Assembly: GCA_017654855.1 (NCBI GenBank)
Contig: CM030335.1
Location: forward strand, 1,302,001-1,366,000
Length of the DNA stretch: 64,000 nucleotides
Direction: 5' to 3'
Source of the DNA: Podospora anserina
Taxonomy: Eukaryota
A model generated the notes under the pieces. It saw only the letters and a program-made list of their open reading frames with translations, searched no databases and was not told the DNA's origin. Position numbers and translations under genes: made by a program. Each line of letters begins with the position of its first letter. The stretch's first letter is position 1. This document shows positions 29,731-47,902 of the stretch, in pieces.

Positions 29731-32700
29731 TCACCAAAAGCTGCACCACCCTATATAGTGCTGGCAGAGATTCTCAAGCTTGGTAGCCTCAATGATCAGC
29801 TTATTAACCTGATCTTTAACAAGAAGCTCTTCGTTCGGCTTGAAATCACGACCCGTGAGTTTCTGGGAGACCCGGTCAAGCACTTCGACAGCCCGCGCAT
29901 TTTGCACCTCCGCAATCTCGATGGGGCCATGGACACCGTCATTGGTTATGCTTGGGAGCGGCGCGGCGGATGAGTTTGTACGCGCACGGCTACGCGCCCC
30001 GGTCAAGCCTTCGGGACCAGCTTGAGCTGCCAGGAACTCAGTCGGGGCCATCGGAGCCTCCAGTATGGAAGGCCGACGCACCCGTGCTGCCTGGGGCCCG
30101 GCAATAGCTTGCTCTCTCTCCGAATTGAAATGTGGTCCAGCGGGACTGGCCGGGTTGGTAAGACGCCACGTGAGTAGCGGGTCGTGAATGAACTAAAGTT
30201 ACGAGTTAGTACAAGACACGATATGTGGCTATAGGTGGTTCAACTTACAGCCTCGAGAACGGCCATAACGCTCTCCTTATTGTCACGCAAGACTCTCATC
30301 ACGTGTTCGCATGTAATCCGGAAGCTGCCCTCGATGTTGCTAACCTCCATGGCATAAGTAAGCATGCGGGTAAGCCTAAAAGGCACCCGCTCCGGGTACT
30401 TCTCACGCTTCATCGCCACCTCAAAGCAGTCGCCAAAGTCAATGTGAATGATCTTGCCCGTGATGCGGTCCAGCATCAGGTTGCTCGGATGACGGTCGCC
30501 CAAGCCCAGGATGTACCCGACCATCGACATGACGCCGAGGGAACGCGTGTAATTAGTTCGCCTGTCTAACCAGGCTTCGGAGCTCTTGCTCTTCAGCCAT
30601 AAGACCCGGTACAGATCCTGACCCGTTGTGTTATCAAGGGCATACCCAAACACTTCCACCTTCTGCATGAGTGTGAGGTTATCGTAGTCGGGCGCCATCT
30701 GAAGCATGATCCGATGCTCGATGTTAAGGAGAATCTTTCTTGACTCCCGATAATCACGGATAAGCTGGTGGATCGTGTCGCTGTCTGGGACCCAGCCGAG
30801 AAGACCCGAATTCTGCGACAGCGGAATAGCCGGGTAACGTTGGATGTTGAGATGGCGCTTGTAGCATTCCGAGTCGTTGGCCAAGAGCGTGTTGCAGAGG
30901 CCGAAGAGCTGCATGACACGCTCATCCTGCCTGATGTCCTCATGACCTTTGAGCAAGAAAGTGTACGTCTTACCGTCACTTCCAACAATGTCAAGTTTTC
31001 GCGGACGTTGCTTGCTGCTGATGACCGTAAAGGTGCCGTCAAAAGACATGATTCGGACAACCTCTTGGCCACTGCGATACGTTCCCGGCACCGCGAGCTC
31101 CAGGTCCCTGGCCTGGAGCAGGTCCGGAGAGCAGTAGGTCAGCTCCAGTGTGGTCATCTGTGGAAGCTGTCGGCTGATACGACGGAAAACCTGGTAGTAC
31201 AAGTCCCAGGCTTGGTTCAGGTCATTGACGTCCTCTGTTTCGCGATATTGCCGGCACCACTCGCGAGCCTCACCCAGATCACGGCCGAACGTCTGTGTAA
31301 ATGAAACCTCCCGGAGGGTTTGAGGGCCCTTTTCGAGCAGGTCGTGAAGGGGCTCGAGGGCATCAAACATTCCCTTGATATTGTGATCGCCAAAGTAGAG
31401 CCGGGAAGCCTCCTCCAGACCCTCATGCCATAGCTCGTGCCAGAGGACCGCGGTCCTAATAAGCTCGCGGCTCACCGTCTCTGCCTGCTCGACCAGCTTA
31501 TTACTGTGCTGACGGATTGTCTCCATAATGAGGCTGGCGGTCTTGGACCTGCGCGTGCTTTGTCGCGACTTCATGGCAACCGTCAAGGGGTAGACTAACG
31601 CCTGGGGGTGCGCACGACCGACATCAGACAACAGAGCATGGATCGACGCCTGAACCTTCTTGTTAGGTTGGGTAATGCGAGCGATCAACTGTGGAATGAC
31701 CTCAAGCCAGGTATCAACGCTGACACGACTGAAGCCCTCTGTCACAGTACTGGCGACATCGGGGTTGCCACCATATGTAAGCCAGAGTGTGAGCAAACGC
31801 AGCGTGTCTTGCAGAGAGCTTCCCGAAGAGAGCGAAATAGACTCGAAAAAACCATGCACAGCAGGCACGGCATACTGGATGATGACGCCGCTGTCTAGGT
31901 CCTTGCGAGATCCAAGGGCCTGCACCACTTCGAAGTTGGCCAAGGCCCAGGCATGCCAGGCCTTGTACCAGTGGCGATGATAATAGGTGGCCTTGTAGTA
32001 GCAGGAGAGGATGTCTTTGCGCCGTGTGTATTGCCAATCGTCCTTGTTCAGGGCAATCATCCAATCGCCCTGGCGGAGGTAGCACTTGGCAAGCAGCACC
32101 GTTTGTTCTGTCCAGTGACGCTGCACATCCGGGCTGAGTAATGCCGCCTCGTCGAACTCGGAAAAGGTAGAGGCCTGATGTAAGCCGTCAATTGCACCGT
32201 TACCGGCCTGGGTGGAAGCGGCTATTTGGTGTCTTGCGCTCTCTACCCTGTGGGCCGTCTCGTCAGTGAACTTGCGAAGGCAGTACAGCGTTCTCTCGGC
32301 GATGGTTCGGTCAGTGTTTCGCATCGCCGGCTGCAAACCGACCTCCCACTGGTACTTGAGTACTGCATACAGAACCGGAGACGCAAGTCTCTCGGCATCG
32401 GGGTCCATGGGGCGGTCGTGCCAGTGAGGGATCACTGTGTCCAGCGGCACATCCGACCCGATAAGCTGTCTCAGTGACTTCTCCGCCAAACCCATCCGTC
32501 CAGACTTGCGGCACAAGTTGGCGAACTTAGTCCACATGTGCATGTTCTCTGGTGGCGTGAGCACGAGCGACCGGAGTCGCAGCATGCGCTGCCATACCTC
32601 AACGTTTCGCTGGCACCCCTTGAGACGAGTCTCCCATGTTGCCCGCAAACTGGCTTGCTTTTCAGCATCGCACTGCTTGTAGATGATCAATTCTTCCAAC

Positions 32701-35700
32701 TCTGCAAGCATCTGAACGCGCACAACAACTTGGTATGCCCTGTTGTAGGATTCGCTCACGAGGGCGCTCAGCTCTGTATCGAGACCTTCTCGAGCTTGGT
32801 CGATGCAGCCCAGGGCTTCTCGGAACTGATTGCGGTGGAGGGCTAAGATGGCGCCGAAGAAGGCGCGATCTGGTGAGAATCGTTTCATAGACTGCAGGTA
32901 GTTATCCATAGAGTCCCATTTCCCGAGCCCCCAGGCAGCCGTGGTGGCAAGGCCTGCGATCATGCGTTGAACCTCTGGTGCCGAGTTTGACCATGTCTTG
33001 CCAGCCAGCGAGGCTAGCGAATCCCACTCACCCAGCGCATGGTAGCAACGCATCTTGCCCATGACAATGTCGACCGGTGTGGGCTGGTCAGGCGGAAGCT
33101 CGCGTTCGCGTTGGCAGTAAAAGTTAAGCGCCTCATCCCAGCGTTCCAGCTTCTCGAACCAGCTTTCCCGCAGCGTGATCCCGTCCTTGTACGCCTTCAC
33201 CTTAGTCAAGATACCAATGGCGGCATCGGACTGCTGCAACTGATTGTTAATCACAATCAGGGCTTCGACCGCGTGACTGTTGTGGTCCTGAAGAAACTCG
33301 AGTTCTTTGTAATGCAGCGCTTTGGCATAGGCGTGACATCTTGCCGCCTCACGTCCCAAGGTTCGAATGTCGATTGGTAGGGCCTTGTCATCATGTTCCA
33401 TGAACTCGGCAAGGTTCAGCAAAAGGCCCAGAAGATCAGGAGGCACATTCTCGGATTTGATTGTGTTTTCGATGTTGGTGATCAGTTCCTCCTGCACGAG
33501 CATTAGTAAACTTGCCGGGGGATCGCGGCAACTCAGTTCTTGGCCTACCTGAAATTGTTCGTACAGCTCGCTCCAGCATGAGACGAAGGCAGAGTTGAAG
33601 AGCTCCCTTGCCAGTGGCTGATAAGTGCTTGCCAAACTGGCGCAAGCTCGGAGTGAGTGATTCGGGGACTCAGAAAGTAACGTCGTGCTAAACTTGCGGA
33701 ACCACTCGTGCCAGTCGTCTTTAGTAGACTTACCCTTGGTTTCCCAGGCTTGCCGTAAATGCATGGGGTTGAGATCCAACTTCTTGGGCGGGCTGTTTTC
33801 AGAGGCATGAAGCTCGACTGCATTGTCCTCGAAGCGCGGCGCGAGGTTAGGCGGTAATGTTTCCCCTTTCTTGAGCTTTTCGACGGCCTTGTCATAGTTG
33901 GAGTGTTGGAGGCCGTATGTTGAGATGGTTTTGTGGACGGTGTGTTCAAAGTGCAAATAATCACGCCCCAGCTGCAACATGAGGGCACATAGCGTGTCGA
34001 GGGCAGCCACTCTTAGACTTGGTTCGTGGCTGGCAAGGACCCGGGTGAGGGGGTGGATGATTTTGGACGCATAGTCGTTGAGATTCACCATGCTCGAGAG
34101 CTTGCCAATCGTTTCAATGGCAGACTTGCGCAGAAACATGGGTTGGGCCGAGTTGTCGAAGAGACGTACCAACACGGGGATGATGAGGTGCATATACTCC
34201 TCGGCGCTTGAGCCGAACACTAGGAAAGCATGAAAGATCTTTTCGGTCGGTTGCCGCTTGGTGGTGGTGTCCTTTTCCAGCAAGCCGAGCATCATCGGGA
34301 GGAGACTGGCAAGGTAGACCTTGAACTCGCCCTCTAGGGAGCGTGCAATGGACTCGATCAACGACATGATGGTGGTCTGGAGCGAATATGTCGTGTCCCA
34401 ATACTCCTGGAGAACCTCGATGATGTCCGGGAGGTAGACCCTGATATGCTGACGGACAATTCCAACAAGCCTACTAAGGTGGTTGAAATAGAAGTCGAGT
34501 CGCGTTTGGCTCGAGGCGCGGATCACGGCGATAAAGGCAGGCACCACACGGTCGAGGAACTGGACACACTTGAGCCCAAGCGTGATGAAGATGCTCATGA
34601 TGGCATCCACCACGTTTCCGTGCCACTGCACCAACGACTGGTCTTTGAGGATCTGGAGAAGGGCATTAATAACAACGGTTGGGTAGTAGTCCTCCTGTGA
34701 AGGGGTTAGTCCGCCCATCATGAGGGACACATCAGTGAGTTGGGTTGCTTCGGTTTGCTTCTGTGTGCGCGGCGCGCGATCTTCGACCTGCTGTTCTGGA
34801 GTTTTAGCCTTGTTTTTCGACGTTACTTTGCGCTTCTGCTTTTCAACCACTTCAGGAGGGGAGTACGGTCCGAGAAAGAGGGCGACGTTGTCGTTCTCAT
34901 CGTCCGAATCATCCGAGTCTTCCATGGTTGGAGTAGCAGAGGACAATGCGCTGAAATGGGCGTGGCGAAGGGGAACAAAAGAACAGTTGCGCTGTACCTG
35001 ATATTTGTAGGGATCGAGTGCTCCCAGGATGCCCATCACCTTGATGGTTTCCTGTCGTAAAAGCCCGCGCTGAGGCTCGCCCCGGATGATGGACTGCAGG
35101 ATCTCAAGAAGTTGGGGATACTCGAGGTAGGGTTTGATGACATAGCCTGTGTTACTGGCCAGCTGACCGAGGGTATGCAGGGCTGCCTCCCGTTTAACTG
35201 GTGCGCTTTGATCCTGCAATGCGTCAATGATGATGGGCATGAGATCCTTCTTGTAGTTTAGCATCTCTTCTCCACCAACGGTGCACAGTTCCCCGAGTGC
35301 TTGGAGGACAGTCGCAGCAACGGACGGGATCGGGTCGCGAGCTTTTGGCAGCAACACTTGGGTGATGGAGTTGACGTATGGTTTGACCAGCTCCTGAGCG
35401 TGCCGTGTGAGAAGACTGAGTAATCTCGAGCTTTCCTCCTTGCTCCGAGCCACATCTGTGTATTCAAGCTCTGTCAACATCTGAATGATGGTTTTTCGCA
35501 GCTGGGGGATAACATAGGCGGGATTGTGGCGAGCCAACCGGCCTATGATGGACACGGCCACCTCCCTGACGGCAAACTGTTCATCGTGGAGCGCGAAGAA
35601 CAAGGTGCGTATATTCTCAGCCTTGGCGAGATGCTGGTCAAATCGCTCGTCAAGGGCTGCTAGCAACGTCTGCCGTATTTTGGGTTCGGGATCCGAAACA

Positions 35701-37476
35701 CCCACAGTCAGGAGTCTCTCGATGACATCGGCGACCACTTGGAGGGCATGATAGCTTGTCTGGTTGACGATTGGGTCACGCACATAGAGCTGGCAGCAGG
35801 TGAGGGCAGCAGCCTCACGTGTTTCTGGGTCATCATCTTCGACGTATTTGATAGCGACGTCGCGGACGAATTCGTTCAAGACATGGCCTTGAAAATCAAA
35901 GCTGCCGAGCGTGTTGAGGGCCAACTTGACTTCATCCTTTGTCCGCTGGTGAGCAAGGGGGTCCTTTGGGTCTTTGGGAATATGAGGTATGGAAGCGAGC
36001 GAGTTTGGATGGGGTGCACCCAGAGGTCTGAAGGGTTCGCCGCAGAGAACTTTGCTCAGCATGTCCAACAGGCGCTCTTGAATGGTGGCTTTGACTGGGG
36101 GGATGTAGAACGCCATATCGACAAGGGCCTGTGTCAGTTTTGGCGTGAGCTCGCAGGCGAAGATGGGATCAAGAAGCGCCTCCATATACTTGCTCATTGT
36201 CTGACCCACGGCGACGGCCAATCGACTGATGCAGTCAAAAACAGGATCGACCGAGCTTCGTTTCCGGGACTGTACACTGAGACCCTCGCGAATATGGATG
36301 AGAACGCCGTCTAAATAGGGTGTGATTGCGCTCTTGACCGAATTGGCGATGTTGCCAATGGCAAGAAAGGCGTCGTTGCGGTCCTTGTCCTTCTTCAGCA
36401 TGCCCCCAAGATACACCATAAACATGTGCAAATAGCTCGCCGAGAACTCTGTCGGTGCATAGTTGGCCAGGTCCGGGATCAAAAGCACAACCGTCTTGCG
36501 GATGGCGGGATCGCGCGCGTCTTTGTGGCGGAAGACAATCTCACAGGCCTCTTGGTAGTGAGCCTGCATGTACATGCCACCCTGTTCAAGCAGCTCCTTG
36601 AGCACAAGAAGCGAGGCATGGATAAACTCAACCGTGTTGATCTTGAGCCCCTTGATCGCCTCGTTGAGCATCTTGTCCATCCAGTCCTTCTTCAGCTCCT
36701 GGTCTCGCTCACGAATGATTTTGAAACAGGCGCTAACGGTCTCGCTGGCAGTCTCGCGAATCAAGAGACGGGAGTCACGAAGGCCAATCCAAATCTGTTC
36801 AAAGACGTAGCCCACATAGTTATACATCAACGTAGGCGTGTTTCTGGCCAGCTCGCGAAGCACCAAGACTGCCGAGTACCGCCGTTCCTCGATTCGGTCA
36901 GACTGTAGCCACTCAAGCGCTGTTTGAACTTCGGAATCGACCAGTTCGGAAATCAAGGAACCGCCTGGCTTGCATAGTTTTCCAAGGACGACAGCGGCCG
37001 GCTGCATAGAGTTGATATCGCGGCCACGCAGGATGCTGCCAATGTAGTTCTGGAAGCGGGTGTACTTCAAGGCTGGTTCTATGCCGTCAAAATCGACCAA
37101 CGCATCCAGGATGTAAATTCCACCAAGACGGTCATACGTATCGGGACCTTGTATCAATAGATTCGTACGCTGATTGACATTATCGAAGAAGCGCTGGAAC
37201 TGTTCGGCACCCATCTCTGATATCTCGTTAGTACCTAGAGTCACTCTTGTAACACAGACTTGGAAATAACCTCACCCTGCTTGGCAGCATTGACCAGGTC
37301 TCTGATTTGGCGCGCGGCCCGTTTCCTTTGGTTTTCATCATAGTTTCTGCAATGCAAGCCAAACATTAGCAAGAAAGCAGCATGGAGCGCTCAGCAAACG
37401 CAAACACGAACCGATTCCTGATCTCCTTGATGTGCTGGTCCAGCGAGGTAGCTGTCTGATCTTTGACGGCGGACAT
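29731..37476 (-). CDS. TOR: Target of rapamycin (TOR) PIKK kinase
   Basis: HEAT repeats, FAT, FRB ([18 protein letters not shown]), kinase ([22 protein letters not shown]) and FATC ([12 protein letters not shown]). Predicted exons 37476-37412, 37346-37276, 37216-34998, 34790-33549, 33491-30249, 30192-29731. Confidence 0.99.
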
Positions 37477-39184: not shown

Positions 39185-41010
39185 CTATAGCTCGTCCTTA
39201 ATCGGCACGCCGGGCTCCTGAACATCTTCACAGGCAGCTGGGGAGCCGACCTCCATCCTGTACACGCACTTCTCAGCCTCTACCGTGCGCCAGACCTCGT
39301 CTGTCTCAGCACAGCCAAGGTAAACGTCGGTTCTCCTGTTGGGCCCGTTCCAGCACCCCTGCCCATTCTCATACCGCAAAACCAACCTCTGACCCTTGCC
39401 CAGTCCCTTGCCGTCAAGTCTCTCTTCCTCATCCACAAACTCCTTGTCAATGCGCACAAAGTTGCCCATGTTGGTATTCCCATGACCCTTCTTACTCTTT
39501 TGGGTGGTCTTGTCGAACCAGCAGAGCTCATAGTCATATTCGCCAGCCTCACCGCTGATGCACTTGCCCTTCAGGGCACGGAAAACATCATCAGGGCCAT
39601 AGTCCTTTTCGAGCTCCCGCTGCTCCTCTTCCAGCTGGCCCAGCTTTACCGAATGTGCATTCGTGGCAGAATCGCGGGCCTCCCTTGCGGCTGTGACCAA
39701 ACGAGACTCTCCGCCACTGGTAGGGTTGTCAGCAAGGATGCCATTCTCGATCGCCCAAACCCGGAGGAGGTTGAGCTTCTGGTGAACATAGTCGCGGACT
39801 GGCACTGGAAGATAGGCCTCCCAGTTGTACACTACCGGTTGTTAGCTGAGCCTCCGTGTCTGAAAATTGGATGCAGGTTTGAACAACTTACCGACGTCAA
39901 CATCGCTCGCCTCGCCAGTCTCAAACTCGGCCCAATTGATTCCAGATGTTTCACTATCCTCTTTTAGCACCTCCATGATATCGGAGTCGGCGAGGTCTCC
40001 CTTGGGCTCGCTGGGCTGTCCTGCAGCGTAGTCCTCCCAGGCCTTGACCGCAGCCTTGACGCCCTCATCGTTGAAGTTGGGATTGTACTCCTCCTTGAGC
40101 TTGGTGAGGATGTCCTCCAGTTGGTCGACCTTGTCTTGAAGATCATCCCGCTGGTCCATGACCTTGTCCAACGTATTTCGCAACTCATTGACGCGGCTTT
40201 TGGCCAGACCAACGAGAACACCCAGCTTGCCGCCCTGGCCTTCACTCTTGACGACCTTTCCTCTTTCTGAGCGTTCCACCTCATCAAACTTGGCCTGCAT
40301 TTCTGCCTTCTTGGCGTCAAGGTCTCGCACCTCTGTCTTGAGGTTCGCAATCTTAACCTCCACCCGTCGGCGCAGCTCACGGGACTCCTTGACCAACGTG
40401 CGTCTCTTCTTCGCCGACCGCTCCTTGTTCTGTCTCCGTTGTTCCTCCAGACGTCGGTATTCTTTCCCAATAGCATCGCAACGGTTTTCACACTGGACAC
40501 CACCGGCATGAGTGTTCTCGTCGCTGCCATCGCAACATAGCTCGTAGTCGCAGACGCCATCGTTGACGTACATGAAGGCGAGGTAGCTTCCAACATGGCC
40601 GGCATTGACGCACCAGAAGCCGGGGAGGGCGGCGGTTGTGTTGGTGGTGCCGGTTACGGAGCCTGGAAGCGGCTGTTCTGGAGATAGGGGGTCAATATTG
40701 GCGCAGGCGGCGGTCCCAGGTTCGTCTGAGCCATCGGGGCAGTCGCACGAGTTGTCATTGACCTGGGACGCCTTGAGGGTGATGGAGGGAATGCCGATGC
40801 ATGTAAAGGTTGTTTTACTTTCGAAGAACTTGACAACTACGGCGGCACAAGACAGGTTGCTGTTAGCAGCAGCATCCCGACTGTGGCTAATGGAAGTGTC
40901 GACGAAGGGGACTTACACTCGGGTCCAACGCCCCGCGGCAAGCTCTCTGATGCAGCGAGACTGCCGTGAGCAATGGCGCCCAAAAGCGCCAATGCACCTG
41001 TCCTGCGCAT
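39185..41010 (-). CDS. GTB1: Glucosidase II beta subunit (PRKCSH family)
   Basis: Signal peptide from ATG 41010, Cys-rich DGVCDYELCCDGSDE, coiled coil, MRH domain (YENGQGCWNGPNR), C-terminal KDEL. Introns 40916-40837 and 39891-39832. Confidence 0.95.
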
Positions 41011-41485: not shown

Positions 41486-42652
41486 ATGCCGTCTTCCGGC
41501 GACGCTCTCGAAACACTCACCACCGTTGTGTCGGATGCGCTCACCCTCATCGGCCAACTTGAAGTAGTTGTTTCGGGTCTCAGCTCCCAGGAAATCAGTA
41601 CCACAGCCTCCCCAGGAGTTCAGCAGTCGCCAGAAGGTGGTTCCCTCGATGCACTTTCATTGGCACACGATTCGGCTACCCTCATCAGAGCACACGCCAC
41701 AAAGATCTCTCTTCTTATTATCAATGAGCCCTTCACGCCAACAGCCATCACCAAAGTTGTACGAGAGCTTATAGCTGGTCCCCTTCCTGGTTTGGCAGCT
41801 TCTGCCCAAGAATGCACAGCCAGACGGTATACACGGGCAATTCAGAAGGATCTGGCTTGGAAGGTGGCCCGCGTGCTCAAGGAGCTCCGTGACCTGCTAT
41901 CCCAGATTCCCAAGGACGGGAAAATCCTGAAAGATGGCAAAAAGAATGCAGCGGCTGGTGCAGCCGGCGGCAAGGGCAGCATTGCCGCTACTGGTCTGTT
42001 ATGGGCTGCGTGCGACGACCTGATGGCATTTTGCAAGCGGGGATTCGGCGGCAACTTGGTCTACAAGGTCGACCAGTTACGTGAGACGCTAAAGGATGTT
42101 ATGGAGGAGTTGAAAGAGTGGGGCGAGGAAACAGGAGATGACGGGGATGAAGATGATGACGACGAGGGCGACGATGGTGTTGCAGGGATCACCAACAACC
42201 TTGGGTCTGCTTCCCTCTCTGCGAATGCAAGCACCCAGGCCATGTTGGACGACCTGATGAACTCTCAAAGTTACATCCCACGAGACGACCCACACAAAAT
42301 CAGAGATCGTTTGGAATCATGTCTCAGGCGACTACGCCTGACCTCTTTACTTTACCAAGCTGCCGCTAAGCGCAGGCTCAAGCCATTGCCGCACACCCCT
42401 CCAACATCAGACTCCAATGTCCCTGCTCGCCTTGATGAAGTCTTGGCGCTTTTGAAGGGAATCCCAGAAAGATTTGGGAACCTTGCGATGGCTTTCTATG
42501 ACCTTGATCCTGACGAGATTGACCGTCTAATGGACCAATGCTTCTTTGATGCATTTGCTGCCTCGGAGCTGCTCGTCAAACCATGGGATGGCCAAAAGGA
42601 TGAATTCACCGACTGGGCCCTTAAATTTCAGGTAGAGATAAAAAAAAGCTAG
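41486..42652 (+). CDS. Grap2 and cyclin-D-interacting (GCIP/CCNDBP1)-like helical protein
   Basis: Intact 388-aa ORF, helical composition with a central acidic tract; LIRAHATKISLL motif recalled from this family. Confidence 0.65.
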   Translation: MPSSGDALETLTTVVSDALTLIGQLEVVVSGLSSQEISTTASPGVQQSPEGGSLDALSLAHDSATLIRAHATKISLLIINEPFTPTAITKVVRELIAGPLPGLAASAQECTARRYTRAIQKDLAWKVARVLKELRDLLSQIPKDGKILKDGKKNAAAGAAGGKGSIAATGLLWAACDDLMAFCKRGFGGNLVYKVDQLRETLKDVMEELKEWGEETGDDGDEDDDDEGDDGVAGITNNLGSASLSANASTQAMLDDLMNSQSYIPRDDPHKIRDRLESCLRRLRLTSLLYQAAAKRRLKPLPHTPPTSDSNVPARLDEVLALLKGIPERFGNLAMAFYDLDPDEIDRLMDQCFFDAFAASELLVKPWDGQKDEFTDWALKFQVEIKKS

Positions 42653-43567
42653 ATATTTTTGGCGATGAACCACAACAAGTTGCCATCCTGTGTCTCGCCT
42701 TTCTAATTTGAATGGTATCTCGCCATTGCCAGTCCTAAAGATTATGGTATTAATGTACCAGAACACCAATTGTTAATCGATATATTAATTTAAGAACCTA
42801 TCACATTACGCTATACCATTCAACTGCGTGAGTTGTATTTTGAATCAGTAGCAGACCTTCCATCACGAAGTCGAGGAGCTTTGGTACAGGCATTGTCTTT
42901 GGGTTCTCATCTTAGATATCTTATCTTCTACATAATTCAAGTTTCTAAGACAAGGGAAAATAAAGAAAATATATGCTAGAGGTGTTACTCTAAATTAGAG
43001 ACCTTAATTATCGTGCTTATCCCCCAGGATTATGTTGATCGATGTTTGTTGTGTGAACAATCAACCCCTGGGTCAGGGGCTAGTCTTGGCAGGGATAAAA
43101 AGACCCAAGGACTGCTTATACAAATGAAAGACATCCGCCACCAATTGCTTGCTGGCCATTATCATTCCCACCATGACAATTTTGTTGCAGCCTCCGCATG
43201 GCTGTTTGCACTTGTGGGTGAGCTGGCCTCCATGCCCTGGTGAAATTACGCTCCTTATATCACGAGCATGAAGATCACTAGATATTTGTTATATGTTGCA
43301 GCAGCAAACCTTTGCAGAAGTTTGAGTGGGTCTGAAGTGAAATCACCCCTGATATATTCCGAGAGTGTGTTATGAAAACACGAAGGTTGTCAAATCTGGA
43401 AGTTGTACTGCGATAGGTAGAACAGGCTGAAGTGTACCATGCAGTTCTTGTAAGGTATGCAGCAAGGCTCTGGGGAAAAGGATAGTTTATCTTGGGCGTC
43501 TGTCAAACTTGCTCCCCTGGCTTTGCTCGAAATAACTGGCTTAGTCGCTCAGCTGGATTGAGGGTCC

Positions 43568-43790
43568 ATGTGTTATTCACCTGAAGAAGCCCCTCGCCTG
43601 ATAGCCACATTGGAAGCTGCCAGACTCTGTGGTCGCGTATCATGTGTATGTCAATGCAAGACACCCCTCGCCTGATAGACGCATTTGAAGCTTTTGGACT
43701 CCGTAGTCGCGTACCGACAAGCTCTATACACCATAGCCGCGTATCAACAAGCCCTATACACCGTAGCCGCGTATCACCAAGCCCTATCCA
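43568..43790 (+). repeat. Imperfect ~74-bp duplication followed by three 30-bp tandem repeats
   Basis: CCCCTCGCCTGATAG...GAAGCT occurs twice (units start at 43568 and 43642). A unit like CCGTAGCCGCGTATCAACAAGCCCTATACA occurs three times at ~43701-43790. Confidence 0.8.
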
Positions 43791-45747
43791 CTCTCCCCAC
43801 GTCTCACTTCCGGGGACCACAGGAATAACGCTTCGTTATAGTCCTCTACACGACCAGCGAGAAAGAGTTTCATATTCTCAACTTGAGGCTTCGAATTCTA
43901 CCCCGAGACCGCCAGCTCTAGGGACCCTTCTTCGCATCTTCAGTTCCTCACAAGCTCTAACTCCATCTTCAAGTCTTCCTCTTCTTCTGATTTATTCCGG
44001 GTTCGATTCTCTGAGCTTCGATCGCCAGCTCATACACTCTCTGTCTGCCTTTAAACCCCTGAGCAGATACAGCCCCGAGGTCCGCGTACCAATCTTTCAT
44101 TCAACTTGGGCAGCTCGAGAATCAAGAACCACAACTGTCAGCTTTGATCACACCATCCTACAACTTCTGTTTCTCTTTTGAGTCTCTGAATTGATCCAAG
44201 CCAGTAGCTGATCGTTCACTTCCTCCTGAAGTTGTTCCGAATCGAATCAGACTTCACATCTTGACCACCAGTTCTCACAGCTGCTGCTCACCTTGCGATT
44301 TCACGGGCCTTTTGATTCTACAAGCAGATAAAGTTTCTACCCAGCCTTCAATACGATCCTGAGTTTGAATTACCCGAATCCAAGCACTCTGAAGAGCACG
44401 TTTCTCCAGCACCGGAAGCATTTCGACTCCGGTCTTGAGCAGTTGAACGACTAGGATCAAGAGAAGCCAACAGCAAGGACGAGAGGAGCAAGAACTTACG
44501 AGACAATCAAACCAAAGGTCTGAAGCTAAAGAGCCCAGTCCTCCACCCATCATCGACATCAGTTGGTGTGCTATTCCAACATCGATCTCAAGCAAGAACA
44601 CCCCCCCAAAGAGATCAGCCATCAACCAGGAATTGGGTAAGCTTGAGCGCCCAGCACTCCGCATTTCATCAACATTAGCCGGTGACAGCTGAGGCCAGTT
44701 CAATACTTGAAGTTCCTGTGCGTGCAGTGATTCGGATCTGATTTCATACACTTGTAAGCATCACAAGCAACTGGAGCTAACACGAAGTCCAACAACTTGA
44801 ACCAAAAGAATGACAAACCAAGGGACAGAGCGTGGCTAGAATCACGAACCAGAGCAGTTTGAGATGACAGATATGGGTCGAGACAGATCCGATACCTATG
44901 GGGGTATTGGAATGGCGATTGGCAGCCACACCAACCGCCCCGTCATCGGCAAGTTGATTGCTACAAGCTCAGACCAAATAAAACGAGGCAAGTTGTTAAC
45001 CAACTGAGAAGCTTCCCAAATCTCCAAGCGCGCGGCATCATCGCCTTCGATGGGAGGCACACCTGGGACTTGCCAAAGGCAACCAGGATGCTCTGGAGGG
45101 GCGCCATGCGCCAGAGCTGGGGACGGCTGGTTGGGTGTGGGATCGCGGCGTTGCTCCTCTTTGCCAATCTCTTCATGAGCGTTGGCTTAGCTCTCTGCCA
45201 AGCCAAGGGCAAGAAGGGGGTGGAAACTGGTGTGTAGATTTGGCTCTGGGGAAGTTTAAGAGTCTTCCTTCTTGTGCTGTTCGTTTTCGGGTTTCTCTGG
45301 TGGCGTGACGGCAAAGCCGTCAACAAGCTGGCAGAGAACGAAGCCTGGATCGGTGGGAAGGCGACGGGGGGCGTGAGTGCCAGTCAGGCTCTCACACTTT
45401 CCACGCCAGCCGAGACCTCTGCGGCTGCGGCGGAGGCAGAGCGGGGGAAGGGGGCGGCTGTCGGGGCTGGCAAGCGCGAGGGCGAGGGCAAGGGCAAGGG
45501 CAAGGGCAAAGGCAAGGAGGTGGTCAAGTCCTGTGTCGCGCCGGTCGCTTCTCGAATTTGACTCGCTTGAGCATGGGAAGCCCGTGGGAAGCTCTGGTGA
45601 GGGAACCAGAGGCTTGGGTTGTCGTTCTGACACTCAGCACAGCATCTGGTCCGAGATGGGTACAACAGCGCCACAGCCGTATAGCCCATTCGGAGTTCAC
45701 TACCAGGAGCCATCACGGCGCTGACCTGCCCTAGTGGGAAGGGGGAG

Positions 45748-45981
45748 AAGAAGGACAAGAAGAAGGACAAGAAGAAGGACAAGAAGAAGGACAAGAAGAA
45801 GGACAAGAAGAAGGACAAGAAGAAGGACAAGAAGAAGGACAAGAAGAAGGACAAGAAGAAGGACAAGAAGAAGGACAAGAAGAAGGACAAGAAGAAGGAC
45901 AAGAAGAAGGACAAGAAGAAGGACAAGAAGAAGGACAAGAAGAAGGACAAGAAGAAGGACAAGAAGAAGGACAAGAAGGAC
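45748..45981 (+). repeat. Perfect 12-bp minisatellite (AAGAAGAAGGAC), 18 full units plus two partial units
   Basis: Seen directly; reads (KKKD)n in frame +1. Confidence 0.98.
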
Positions 45982-46270: not shown

Positions 46271-47902
46271 TCAGATAGCTCGCGCCATCCGAGCTCTATT
46301 CTCTCTATACCTCTTCTCCTTCCCAGCTGTCTTCCTCCTCTTTTTCCAAGATCTGTTGAGGTCACCACGATTTTCCCAGAACCATTTTTGAAAATCGCTG
46401 GCAGGCTTGTCGCCTTCCGGTACACCCGACCGAGTAGTGGATGCACCGGGCTGCTCGTTGCCTTCACGGAGAGGTTCTTCATGACCACCATCGTCCTCCA
46501 TATCCTCATCATCATCATCCCATGGCTTAAACCGACCGCCTGTTGGGTGTGCCGTATCTGGAGTAGGCGCTGCGCTGCGGATGCCCCTAATCTCGAAGTC
46601 TTGGCGTGTAAAAGGAGTCATGGGGATCTGGAGCCCATCGGCAGCTGCACCAGCATCCTCATTGTCATTGTCCCCATCGCCACCGCCAAAGAAGCTGAAG
46701 CCCTTTGACTCAGTTCCTCCCTCGGCTGTCTCACCGTCGGTATGCTGAGAACGCTTGTACAATGCTTCCAGAGGGTGTATTGTCTTGGGCTCGCTCGGGG
46801 TAGCAGGAGGGATTTTGATAGCCAAGCTCTTGACCGAACTTGACGATTTAGGTCTAGAAAGCTCAGGGCTGAGTGTTGATGGTAAGGGTGAACTGTTGTG
46901 TTGTGGTGTTGGGCTAGGTTTTGGTTGCGCTTTGTGGTTGGGGGTTGATGCTGCTTTTGTGGGCGAAGAGGGGCTGTCAGACTCGCTGTCGCTGTCTGAC
47001 TCCTCACCACTGCTACTGTCGTTGCTGCTCGACTCGCTCTTACTCTCGCTCTGCTCCGCCTTCTTAGGAGCTGAGATCCTGAAAGTTGGAGGGGGCGGGG
47101 CCACGGTCACAGCCTCAACCACATTGCCGTCCTCGTCCACCCATCCCTTACCCTCGACAAACTCCAAAGGTGGTTTTGAAGGGCCGGATGACACTGTCAT
47201 CTTGAGAAAGGTCGGGAATTTCGTTGTATTTTCGAACTCGTGAACAACTACTTCGCGAAGTTTGCCCTTCTTCTTCCTCTTGGATCCGGTGTCGTCTTCA
47301 GCCGATGGTACGGCATTCGCAGGCAGGATCGTCTTGACCAGACATTCGGCATGATCCGTGTATTTTGATCGCTCCTGTTTCTTCTTTTTGTCCTTGCTGT
47401 CCTTCTTTGACCTCTTTTCCTTGGGCTCGTCGGCAGTGGTCCATCCCCTCTTGACCTTCCTGTCATTGTCGAAAACAATGCCGCTGATTTCGTCATTGTC
47501 GCGCTTTCTCTTTTTGGAATTGTATTTTGCTGGGTGCGCGTCGTCCTTGACCCTCTTGTCCTTCTGTTCTTTGGCCATTGCCTCGTCGCCGAGAGGTTCT
47601 GGGATCCTGGAGGGCTTTGCGCGCTCGATGCGAATCTTGACGCCCCGCAGAATCGAGCCGTTGAGTTTCTTCCTGAGTTTGTCGGCGTCTTCGCTTGGCA
47701 GCTCCAGATAACCGTACCGCTTGTCGGGAAAAGTGTCGAGGGTGTGGTAGGAGATGTTGCGTGCCTTTGGAAGGAGCGCTGACGAGAGGAATACTTTCAG
47801 CAGGTCGGCGTCCAGCGGCGTAACGTGTAACCGTACATAAGGTGGCGCCTGGTCGAGGGCTGGCTGAGTTGATGGTGTTTGTGAGCCACCGATTGCTGTC
47901 AT
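46271..47902 (-). CDS. Nucleolar RRM protein (Nop8/NOL8-like; SRP40-like composition)
   Basis: N-terminal RRM-like segment (YGYLEL..KKLNGSILRGVKIRIE), Lys-rich and Ser/acidic tracts, C-terminal FWENRGDLNRSWKKRR. 543 aa, no introns. Confidence 0.75.
   Translation of the reverse strand: MTAIGGSQTPSTQPALDQAPPYVRLHVTPLDADLLKVFLSSALLPKARNISYHTLDTFPDKRYGYLELPSEDADKLRKKLNGSILRGVKIRIERAKPSRIPEPLGDEAMAKEQKDKRVKDDAHPAKYNSKKRKRDNDEISGIVFDNDRKVKRGWTTADEPKEKRSKKDSKDKKKKQERSKYTDHAECLVKTILPANAVPSAEDDTGSKRKKKGKLREVVVHEFENTTKFPTFLKMTVSSGPSKPPLEFVEGKGWVDEDGNVVEAVTVAPPPPTFRISAPKKAEQSESKSESSSNDSSSGEESDSDSESDSPSSPTKAASTPNHKAQPKPSPTPQHNSSPLPSTLSPELSRPKSSSSVKSLAIKIPPATPSEPKTIHPLEALYKRSQHTDGETAEGGTESKGFSFFGGGDGDNDNEDAGAAADGLQIPMTPFTRQDFEIRGIRSAAPTPDTAHPTGGRFKPWDDDDEDMEDDGGHEEPLREGNEQPGASTTRSGVPEGDKPASDFQKWFWENRGDLNRSWKKRRKTAGKEKRYRENRARMARAI

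Follow-up and report, generated by a model that had tools for sequence, protein, structure and literature searches.

Does the in-frame TAG at 45235-45237 in this part of the Podospora anserina genome mark a gene that A-to-I editing of its mRNA could switch on, or a gene that has been lost? The window, by which we mean the whole stretch of 64,000 nucleotides that was analysed, carries this codon between Pa_4_9660 and Pa_4_9670. The original prediction was that editing to UIG, read as Trp, might activate a two-helix membrane protein of 157 residues starting at ATG 45088, with a simple pseudogenising change of TGG to TAG as an equally live alternative. That alternative proves the better fit. At a probability of roughly 0.75 the locus represents an unannotated, single-copy and recently decayed gene (a unitary pseudogene) belonging to a membrane-protein family of the Podosporaceae, a reading drawn from sequence comparison. 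The central features and the two neighbouring genes are as follows.

41486-42652, + strand: upstream neighbour Pa_4_9660, with a GCIP_N domain, covered by RNA contigs
45034-45531, + strand: conserved core in frame +1, HTW...VVKS; tblastn 54-60% to P0018, P0019 and P0020 (E 1e-52 or better) and 90% to P0001
45142-45198, + strand: hydrophobic helix 1, Kyte-Doolittle maximum 2.32, equivalent to helix 128-170 of the P0018 model
45235-45237, + strand: premature TAG at a Trp codon, found in the P. anserina lineage alone
45238-45294, + strand: hydrophobic helix 2, with derived changes V-to-I (45238), G-to-R (45259) and L-to-V (45262)
45469-45517, + strand: GGCAAG repeat giving a KG run, 8.2 copies; close relatives are one unit shorter
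46271-47902, - strand: downstream convergent neighbour Pa_4_9670, whose ortholog in L023 has its 3' end convergent to a Cladorrhinum-type homologue

The description of the reading frame is accurate. Frame +1 across 44863-45561 is interrupted by the single TAG and is otherwise open, the peptide quoted was reproduced and 157 codons were counted from ATG 45088. Hydrophobic helices do flank the stop on both sides, the Kyte-Doolittle maxima over 19 residues being 2.32 upstream, 2.17 across the TAG and 2.07 directly downstream. In 216 kb of the same genome, helices of at least 2.0 on either side of a TAG occur in one of 14 ATG-TAG-stop arrangements of similar size, namely this one, which argues for more than a chance arrangement. 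The TAG is true sequence and not an assembly error. All sampled words of the region are present in 20 of the 24 listed runs, from five studies (12 runs may be source DNA), and an identical downstream half, P0002, is called as a protein on seven contigs.

Codon usage is gene-like over 45088-45558, with a score of 0.121 per codon against a mean of 0.108 for chunks of real genes, a value reached by 3.4% of 870 wrong-frame chunks. The segment 44863-45011, previously assigned to the coding frame, does not belong to it; the score over 44863-45087 is -0.058, and for the 5' part homology is found in frame +2. The exact antisense frame of 45088-45558 scores 0.122, equal to the sense strand. This equality, and the fact that the published transcript table lists nothing between Pa_4_9660 and Pa_4_9670, would speak for a frame open by chance in DNA that does not code, or for the antisense shadow of a gene on the minus strand. 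Such an origin is barely credible given stops in all three minus frames and a core that is 65-79% identical, ungapped and in the plus frame, to proteins from other genera. In L023 a Cladorrhinum-type homologue is convergent to the 3' end of the Pa_4_9670 ortholog (69% over 118 aa) as in P. anserina, the one case in which synteny was seen; this distant match was the sole one in a metagenome scan. The idea of an unconstrained chance ORF was rejected on the homologues, from protein search and tblastn, and on the L023 synteny.

We consider that the locus is the core of a real membrane-protein gene, on the evidence of its relatives, and that it belongs to an uncharacterised two-helix family whose members were found in Podosporaceae only (Cercophora, Triangularia and Cladorrhinum). 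A search with the read-through peptide matched two proteins among 392 candidates. Comparison of P0001 with 1.84 billion representatives gave six matches: P0018 of Cercophora samala, P0019 of T. verruculosa, P0020 of T. setosa, P0002, P0021 and the repeat protein P0022. P0002 is the downstream half of the gene from the P. anserina genome itself, and P0021 clusters with P0025 of Cladorrhinum samala. Profile searching added a further member, P0035. P0022 (E 2e-5) was judged spurious and left out of all counts. The homologues were compared as predicted proteins, with DNA used for L023 only. A core of 101 residues aligns free of gaps, with 24, 26 and 35 differences to P0018, P0020 and P0019, respectively.

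The same family includes KAK0662582.1 (Cercophora samala), KAK4195732.1 (Triangularia verruculosa), KAK4177228.1 (T. setosa), KAK4466457.1 (Cladorrhinum samala) and QBC44DRAFT_393154 (Cladorrhinum sp. PSN332). These hypothetical 'transmembrane proteins' have in common with the P. anserina locus a two-helix core near the C-terminus and a conserved tail motif but, unlike it, are called intact, at 306-1124 aa. Each of six family proteins tested carries two hydrophobic helices close to its C-terminus. An AlphaFold model of P0018, of low confidence (seven sequences, mean pLDDT 49), presents a helical hairpin of residues 128-170 and 177-215, an additional helix at 45-61 and disorder elsewhere. The intact protein is predicted to comprise a long, mostly disordered N-terminal region, a two-helix hairpin with a short loop, and a low-complexity tail. 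Judging by this architecture its role was most likely that of a small membrane anchor or scaffold for disordered parts, not that of an enzyme or channel. Scans of six family proteins against Pfam gave nothing above cut-off, only sub-threshold BrkB and cytochrome b561; a search of the ESM Atlas with P0019 residues 160-280 gave a top score of 0.75 and no family. No sequence relative was found in the PDB, and a fold search there with the pLDDT 49 model found no match.

What belongs at the position of the stop? The proposal of Trp holds, with W in six out of six near homologues (P0001, P0003, P0004, P0018, P0019 and P0020), and the TAG is therefore best seen as a derived change from TGG. The Cladorrhinum proteins P0021 and P0025 have Val at this codon and P0035 is ambiguous. 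Among the proteins compared, no other lineage has a TAG here. Half-genes from other lineages were likewise sought, and none was found among proteins of 86-275 aa or 30-84 aa, in a search made at the protein level, which is biased against broken genes, and with proteins of 276-863 aa searched at the 50% cluster level.

Two further accounts of the TAG can be weighed against these alignments. One takes it as a working stop, ending a one-helix protein of about 100-120 aa or preceding a downstream half that has its own start. With the putative intron spliced, a frame would stay open from ATG 44864 or 44873 as far as the TAG, and the gene caller reports the downstream half on seven contigs, but that call begins at GTG, a bacterial-style start, there is no in-frame ATG between the TAG and TGA 45559, and the proteins searched hold no homologue of such a form; we regard this as quite improbable. 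The other account has the TAG removed by splicing, as a 3' splice site or inside an intron. TAG can serve as an acceptor, and introns are probable in this gene; on the other hand, homologues run gap-free through the site and a pattern scan found no set of donor, branch point and acceptor ending at 45237, which leaves splicing a very improbable explanation.

The TAG is one of several lesions. The features that bear on the remainder of the gene are listed here.

44810-44952, + strand: 5' block in frame +2 from ATG 44810, with more ATGs at 44864 and 44873 and an IGMAIG motif; matches the N-terminus of T. setosa P0020
44837-44839, + strand: another in-frame TAG, at the tenth codon of the 5' block, aligned to Gly in P0020
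44953-45011, + strand: putative 59-nt intron with a weak GTTGAT donor and an AAG acceptor, which would connect frame +2 with frame +1; the joint recreates the GNF..QA motif of P0019
45033-45034, + strand: junction of an in-frame loss of about 81-120 conserved codons, from the QA-to-HTW spacing
45088-45090, + strand: ATG from which the 157 codons were counted; V in P0001, P0004 and P0020, L in P0018, I in P0019, M in P. anserina and P0003 only
45529-45532, + strand: one extra base, a frameshift, after which frame +1 ends at TGA 45559-45561; homologues carry on in frame +2
45533-45724, + strand: ancestral C-terminal tail, out of frame (frame +2), 63/63 identical to the P0001 tail

With residues 1-32 of P0020 as query, the block at 44810 was the best of 8070 six-frame tiles (score 63 vs 40 for the next elsewhere; tblastn E 0.003). 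The IG.AI block by itself is weak, ranking 11-152, yet it is colinear. The TAG at 44837 could be bypassed by starting at ATG 44864 or 44873. The putative intron at 44953-45011, a weak one, is the only way in which frames +2 and +1 can be connected; if left unspliced it would amount to a further frameshift. Upstream of ATG 44810, consensus-like GTAAGC donors are seen on the + strand at 44637 and 44754, and these could be left over from upstream introns of an ancestral gene that was longer, like its Cladorrhinum counterparts of 851-1124 aa; homology there fell short of significance. Inspection suggested a remnant of the long Cladorrhinum N-terminus at 43900-44090; it ranked 26-44 of 8070 tiles with E 12-19 and was rejected.

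The loss at 45033-45034 is apparent in the spacing from the QA motif to HTW, which is 93, 132 and 130 residues in P0018, P0019 and P0020 vs 12 in P. anserina. The missing segment is 48-54% identical among these three proteins. An HMM of the segment gave no match at the P. anserina locus and found the start of P0001 (E 0.017), in which the end of the segment persists; a search with P0020 as query returned no copy elsewhere within the genome of P. anserina. The lost 81-120 residues include helix 45-61, the sole ordered element outside the hairpin in the low-confidence P0018 model.

Since the homologues have V, L or I at 45088, the ATG there is a derived Met and not the ancestral start. Of the earlier interpretation, the two-helix membrane-protein gene and the Trp at its stop hold good, and the 157-residue gene from this ATG does not survive as the ancestral form. 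At the other end, the displaced tail still matches P0018 (E 4e-16), P0019 (E 4e-18) and the Cladorrhinum protein P0021 (E 1e-4). The shifted end is common to P0002 and to P0003, which has Trp at the TAG site. As P0003 has TGG yet the same shifted end, the frameshift is by parsimony older than the TAG. Indels and other stops in the gene had been named as evidence that would tell against editing, and such lesions are largely what the locus displays: a one-base frameshift, a loss of 81-120 residues and a second TAG.

Close to the TAG, the V-to-I and G-to-R changes fall within 24 nt of it and are unique to the P. anserina genome, both most simply G to A, with the codon states inferred from the relatives' proteins. 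The span 45236-45259 thus contains three inferred, lineage-unique G-to-A changes in 24 nt, possibly one clustered mutational event. RIP was considered as their source and is not supported because the locus is single copy and a nearby 12-mer array is perfect. In helix 2, Arg replaces an invariant Gly. The P. anserina lineage has five derived changes in the 101-residue core, three of which fall among the 58 columns that do not vary between four intact homologues, where 2.9 would be expected in the absence of constraint. Without the stop codon, which had been picked in advance, two of four are at invariant columns vs 2.3 expected; the numbers are small. Tests for raised amino-acid divergence gave Fisher p values of 0.10, 0.14 and 0.23, and of 0.003 only against the closest flank orthologue.

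Could editing nevertheless rescue a shortened gene? The locus might be a young PSC gene of the kind described in Fusarium, in which a two-helix protein of 209-230 aa is made only in fruiting bodies, by conversion of UAG 45235 (perhaps also 44837) to UIG, read as Trp. Editing is described as common in Sordariomycetes (PMC11087585), and ADAT genes are induced as P. anserina perithecia develop (bioRxiv 2024.12.09.627484); by descent editing, presumably with the Tad2-Tad3-Ame1 system, is likely to occur in P. anserina. No report of mapped editing sites in this species was found among literature titles and abstract openings. The Trp in all six near homologues suits the proposal, as Fusarium PSC stops are reported to derive mostly from TGG by G to A (PMC10776026). 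In-frame loss of the missing segment, with both helices kept, also suits it, as does a model with the putative intron spliced and a start at ATG 44864 or 44873, 209-212 codons long, in which TAG 45235 is the only break. The same paper describes many of the Fusarium PSC genes as coding for hypothetical proteins that are confined to a lineage and contain disordered regions.

The surroundings of the codon are less accommodating. The preferences described for Fusarium editing sites are C or U at -2, U at -1, A or G at +1, +3 and +4, G at +2, and a place in the loop of a hairpin when 61 nt are folded, with -1 and +1 carrying most weight (PMC9600606). The U at -1 and G at +1 are automatic for any UAG. 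In the GUAGAUU context of 45236, none of the four free positions is preferred, these being Fusarium preferences, not rules, applied to P. anserina. Among the 548 TAGs in the window's gene-rich part, 54 have a context as poor as this. The A at 45238, by the inferred codon change, replaces a preferred +2 G with a depleted A. In folding, A 45236 is paired in six of seven window sizes, including 61 nt, and unpaired in the 31-nt fold; the 61-nt fold shows no unusual stability (z -0.04). TAG 44837 has a better context, with two of four free positions preferred (C at -2, A at +3) and its A in a predicted hairpin loop in 6/7 window sizes, a point for the editing proposal.

Among the runs listed as carrying sequence from 43900-45740, none was RNA. 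Contigs assembled from three runs presumed to be RNA, from two studies, include spliced glucosidase II beta transcripts and cover Pa_4_9660. In the same contigs 42825-45740 is uncovered; such contigs indicate presence and not absence, so this was not counted as evidence. Another run, X21, covers part of the locus at low depth; it is unspliced through a proven intron and so looks like DNA, and a G>T at 44839 in one of its contigs was disregarded.

Comparison with the PSC pseudogenes of Fusarium graminearum (Qi et al. 2024, PMC10776026) is instructive, within what that account covers. The host is again a Sordariomycete, the product a lineage-restricted hypothetical protein with disordered regions, and an in-frame TAG stands within real coding sequence where relatives and orthologues have Trp. 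In contrast, editing by itself restores the F. graminearum genes, and the TAGs in them, as those of functional PSC genes, are generally conserved across species, whereas the P. anserina TAG is in one lineage; a TAG kept in relatives is typical, not required. Favourable flanks and a hairpin loop are absent at 45235. Unlike the F. graminearum genes, the P. anserina locus has a second TAG, has lost a large segment and is shifted in frame by one base, and editing the stop alone cannot restore the full-length ancestral protein. These additional lesions, the Arg in helix 2, the single lineage and the poor context make the editing proposal unlikely.

We return to the unitary pseudogene as the preferred reading. 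There are intact orthologues in other species, the genome holds no intact copy elsewhere (one unrelated weak match, E 0.19), and several independent disabling lesions are present, which together are the marks of such a pseudogene. Silar et al. in 2019 reportedly described a 'gene graveyard' of unitary pseudogenes in the P. anserina species complex. Like those, the 45235 gene is single-copy and is disrupted in part of the complex, while outgroups have it intact. Some observations run counter. The deletion is in frame and keeps both helices, the spliced model has but one break, rate tests are not significant in three of four comparisons, and the tail of T. setosa P0020 is also short, so the tail may be dispensable. 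Overall the gene has probably lost its function.

A sequence of events, its order set by parsimony on predicted proteins, would begin with relaxed constraint in the ancestor of the P. anserina genome and the P0003 lineage. Ancestral damage would consist of the frameshift, the V-to-M and L-to-V changes and perhaps the deletion also. The P. anserina lineage alone would then have acquired the TGG to TAG change along with two further G-to-A changes within 24 nt. The TAG would be an ordinary nonsense change in a gene already damaged.

What follows from a pseudogene is modest. It fills the annotation gap from Pa_4_9660 to Pa_4_9670 on the chromosome arm, defines an unstudied Podosporaceae membrane-protein family and presents the loss of a gene in steps within a species complex in which identity between members exceeds 98% (PMC10936905). 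It also teaches that a TAG where relatives have Trp is insufficient to call an editing switch. We think it doubtful that the locus is instead a PSC switch caught at birth, with the shortened gene open in the P0003 lineage (TGG) and dependent in P. anserina on perithecial editing of one or two UAGs. If it were, a near-identical pair of genomes would differ in the editing need of one membrane protein, a direct test of whether editing switches begin as tolerated damage or as adaptations, and a very young PSC site would be available in a tractable model fungus.

The locus is placed by its neighbours: the proteins on either side group with the Podospora genes that bear the numbers 409660 and 409670, and Pa_4_9660 and Pa_4_9670 are consecutive rows of Table S1 of PMC9801653, with spacing as in the window. 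That published transcript table has no entry between them, the gene is absent from the 20 new coding genes of Table 3 of the same paper, and a literature search found no mention of five locus tags; the gene appears to lack annotation. The accessions of the flanking genes under the name P. pseudopauciseta, KAK4665615.1 and KAK4665617.1, skip one number and are consecutive in four other listed series, and there may be an annotated gene in that species at the orthologous interval.

Directly 3' of the ancestral stop, at 45746-45978, lies an array of the 12-mer AGAAGAAGGACA, with 19.4 copies and 100% matches. Across it the published coordinates of the flanking genes and those in the window differ by 12-14 bases (PMC9801653), a shift which suggests that copy number varies. 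On the other side, within a 2-kb unannotated stretch upstream, a 30-bp tandem repeat of 2.9 copies occupies 43704-43791. Further off, the glucosidase II beta subunit gene on the - strand has introns at 39832-39891 and 40837-40916, confirmed by spliced contigs from three runs. A block at 1-28000 is AT-rich, with GC mostly 0.17-0.35 per kb and no 200-codon ORF before 27998, and looks like RIP-degraded repeat DNA. Beyond it, 30240-37271 on the - strand is an uninterrupted ORF of 2343 codons, which may resemble a TOR-type kinase.
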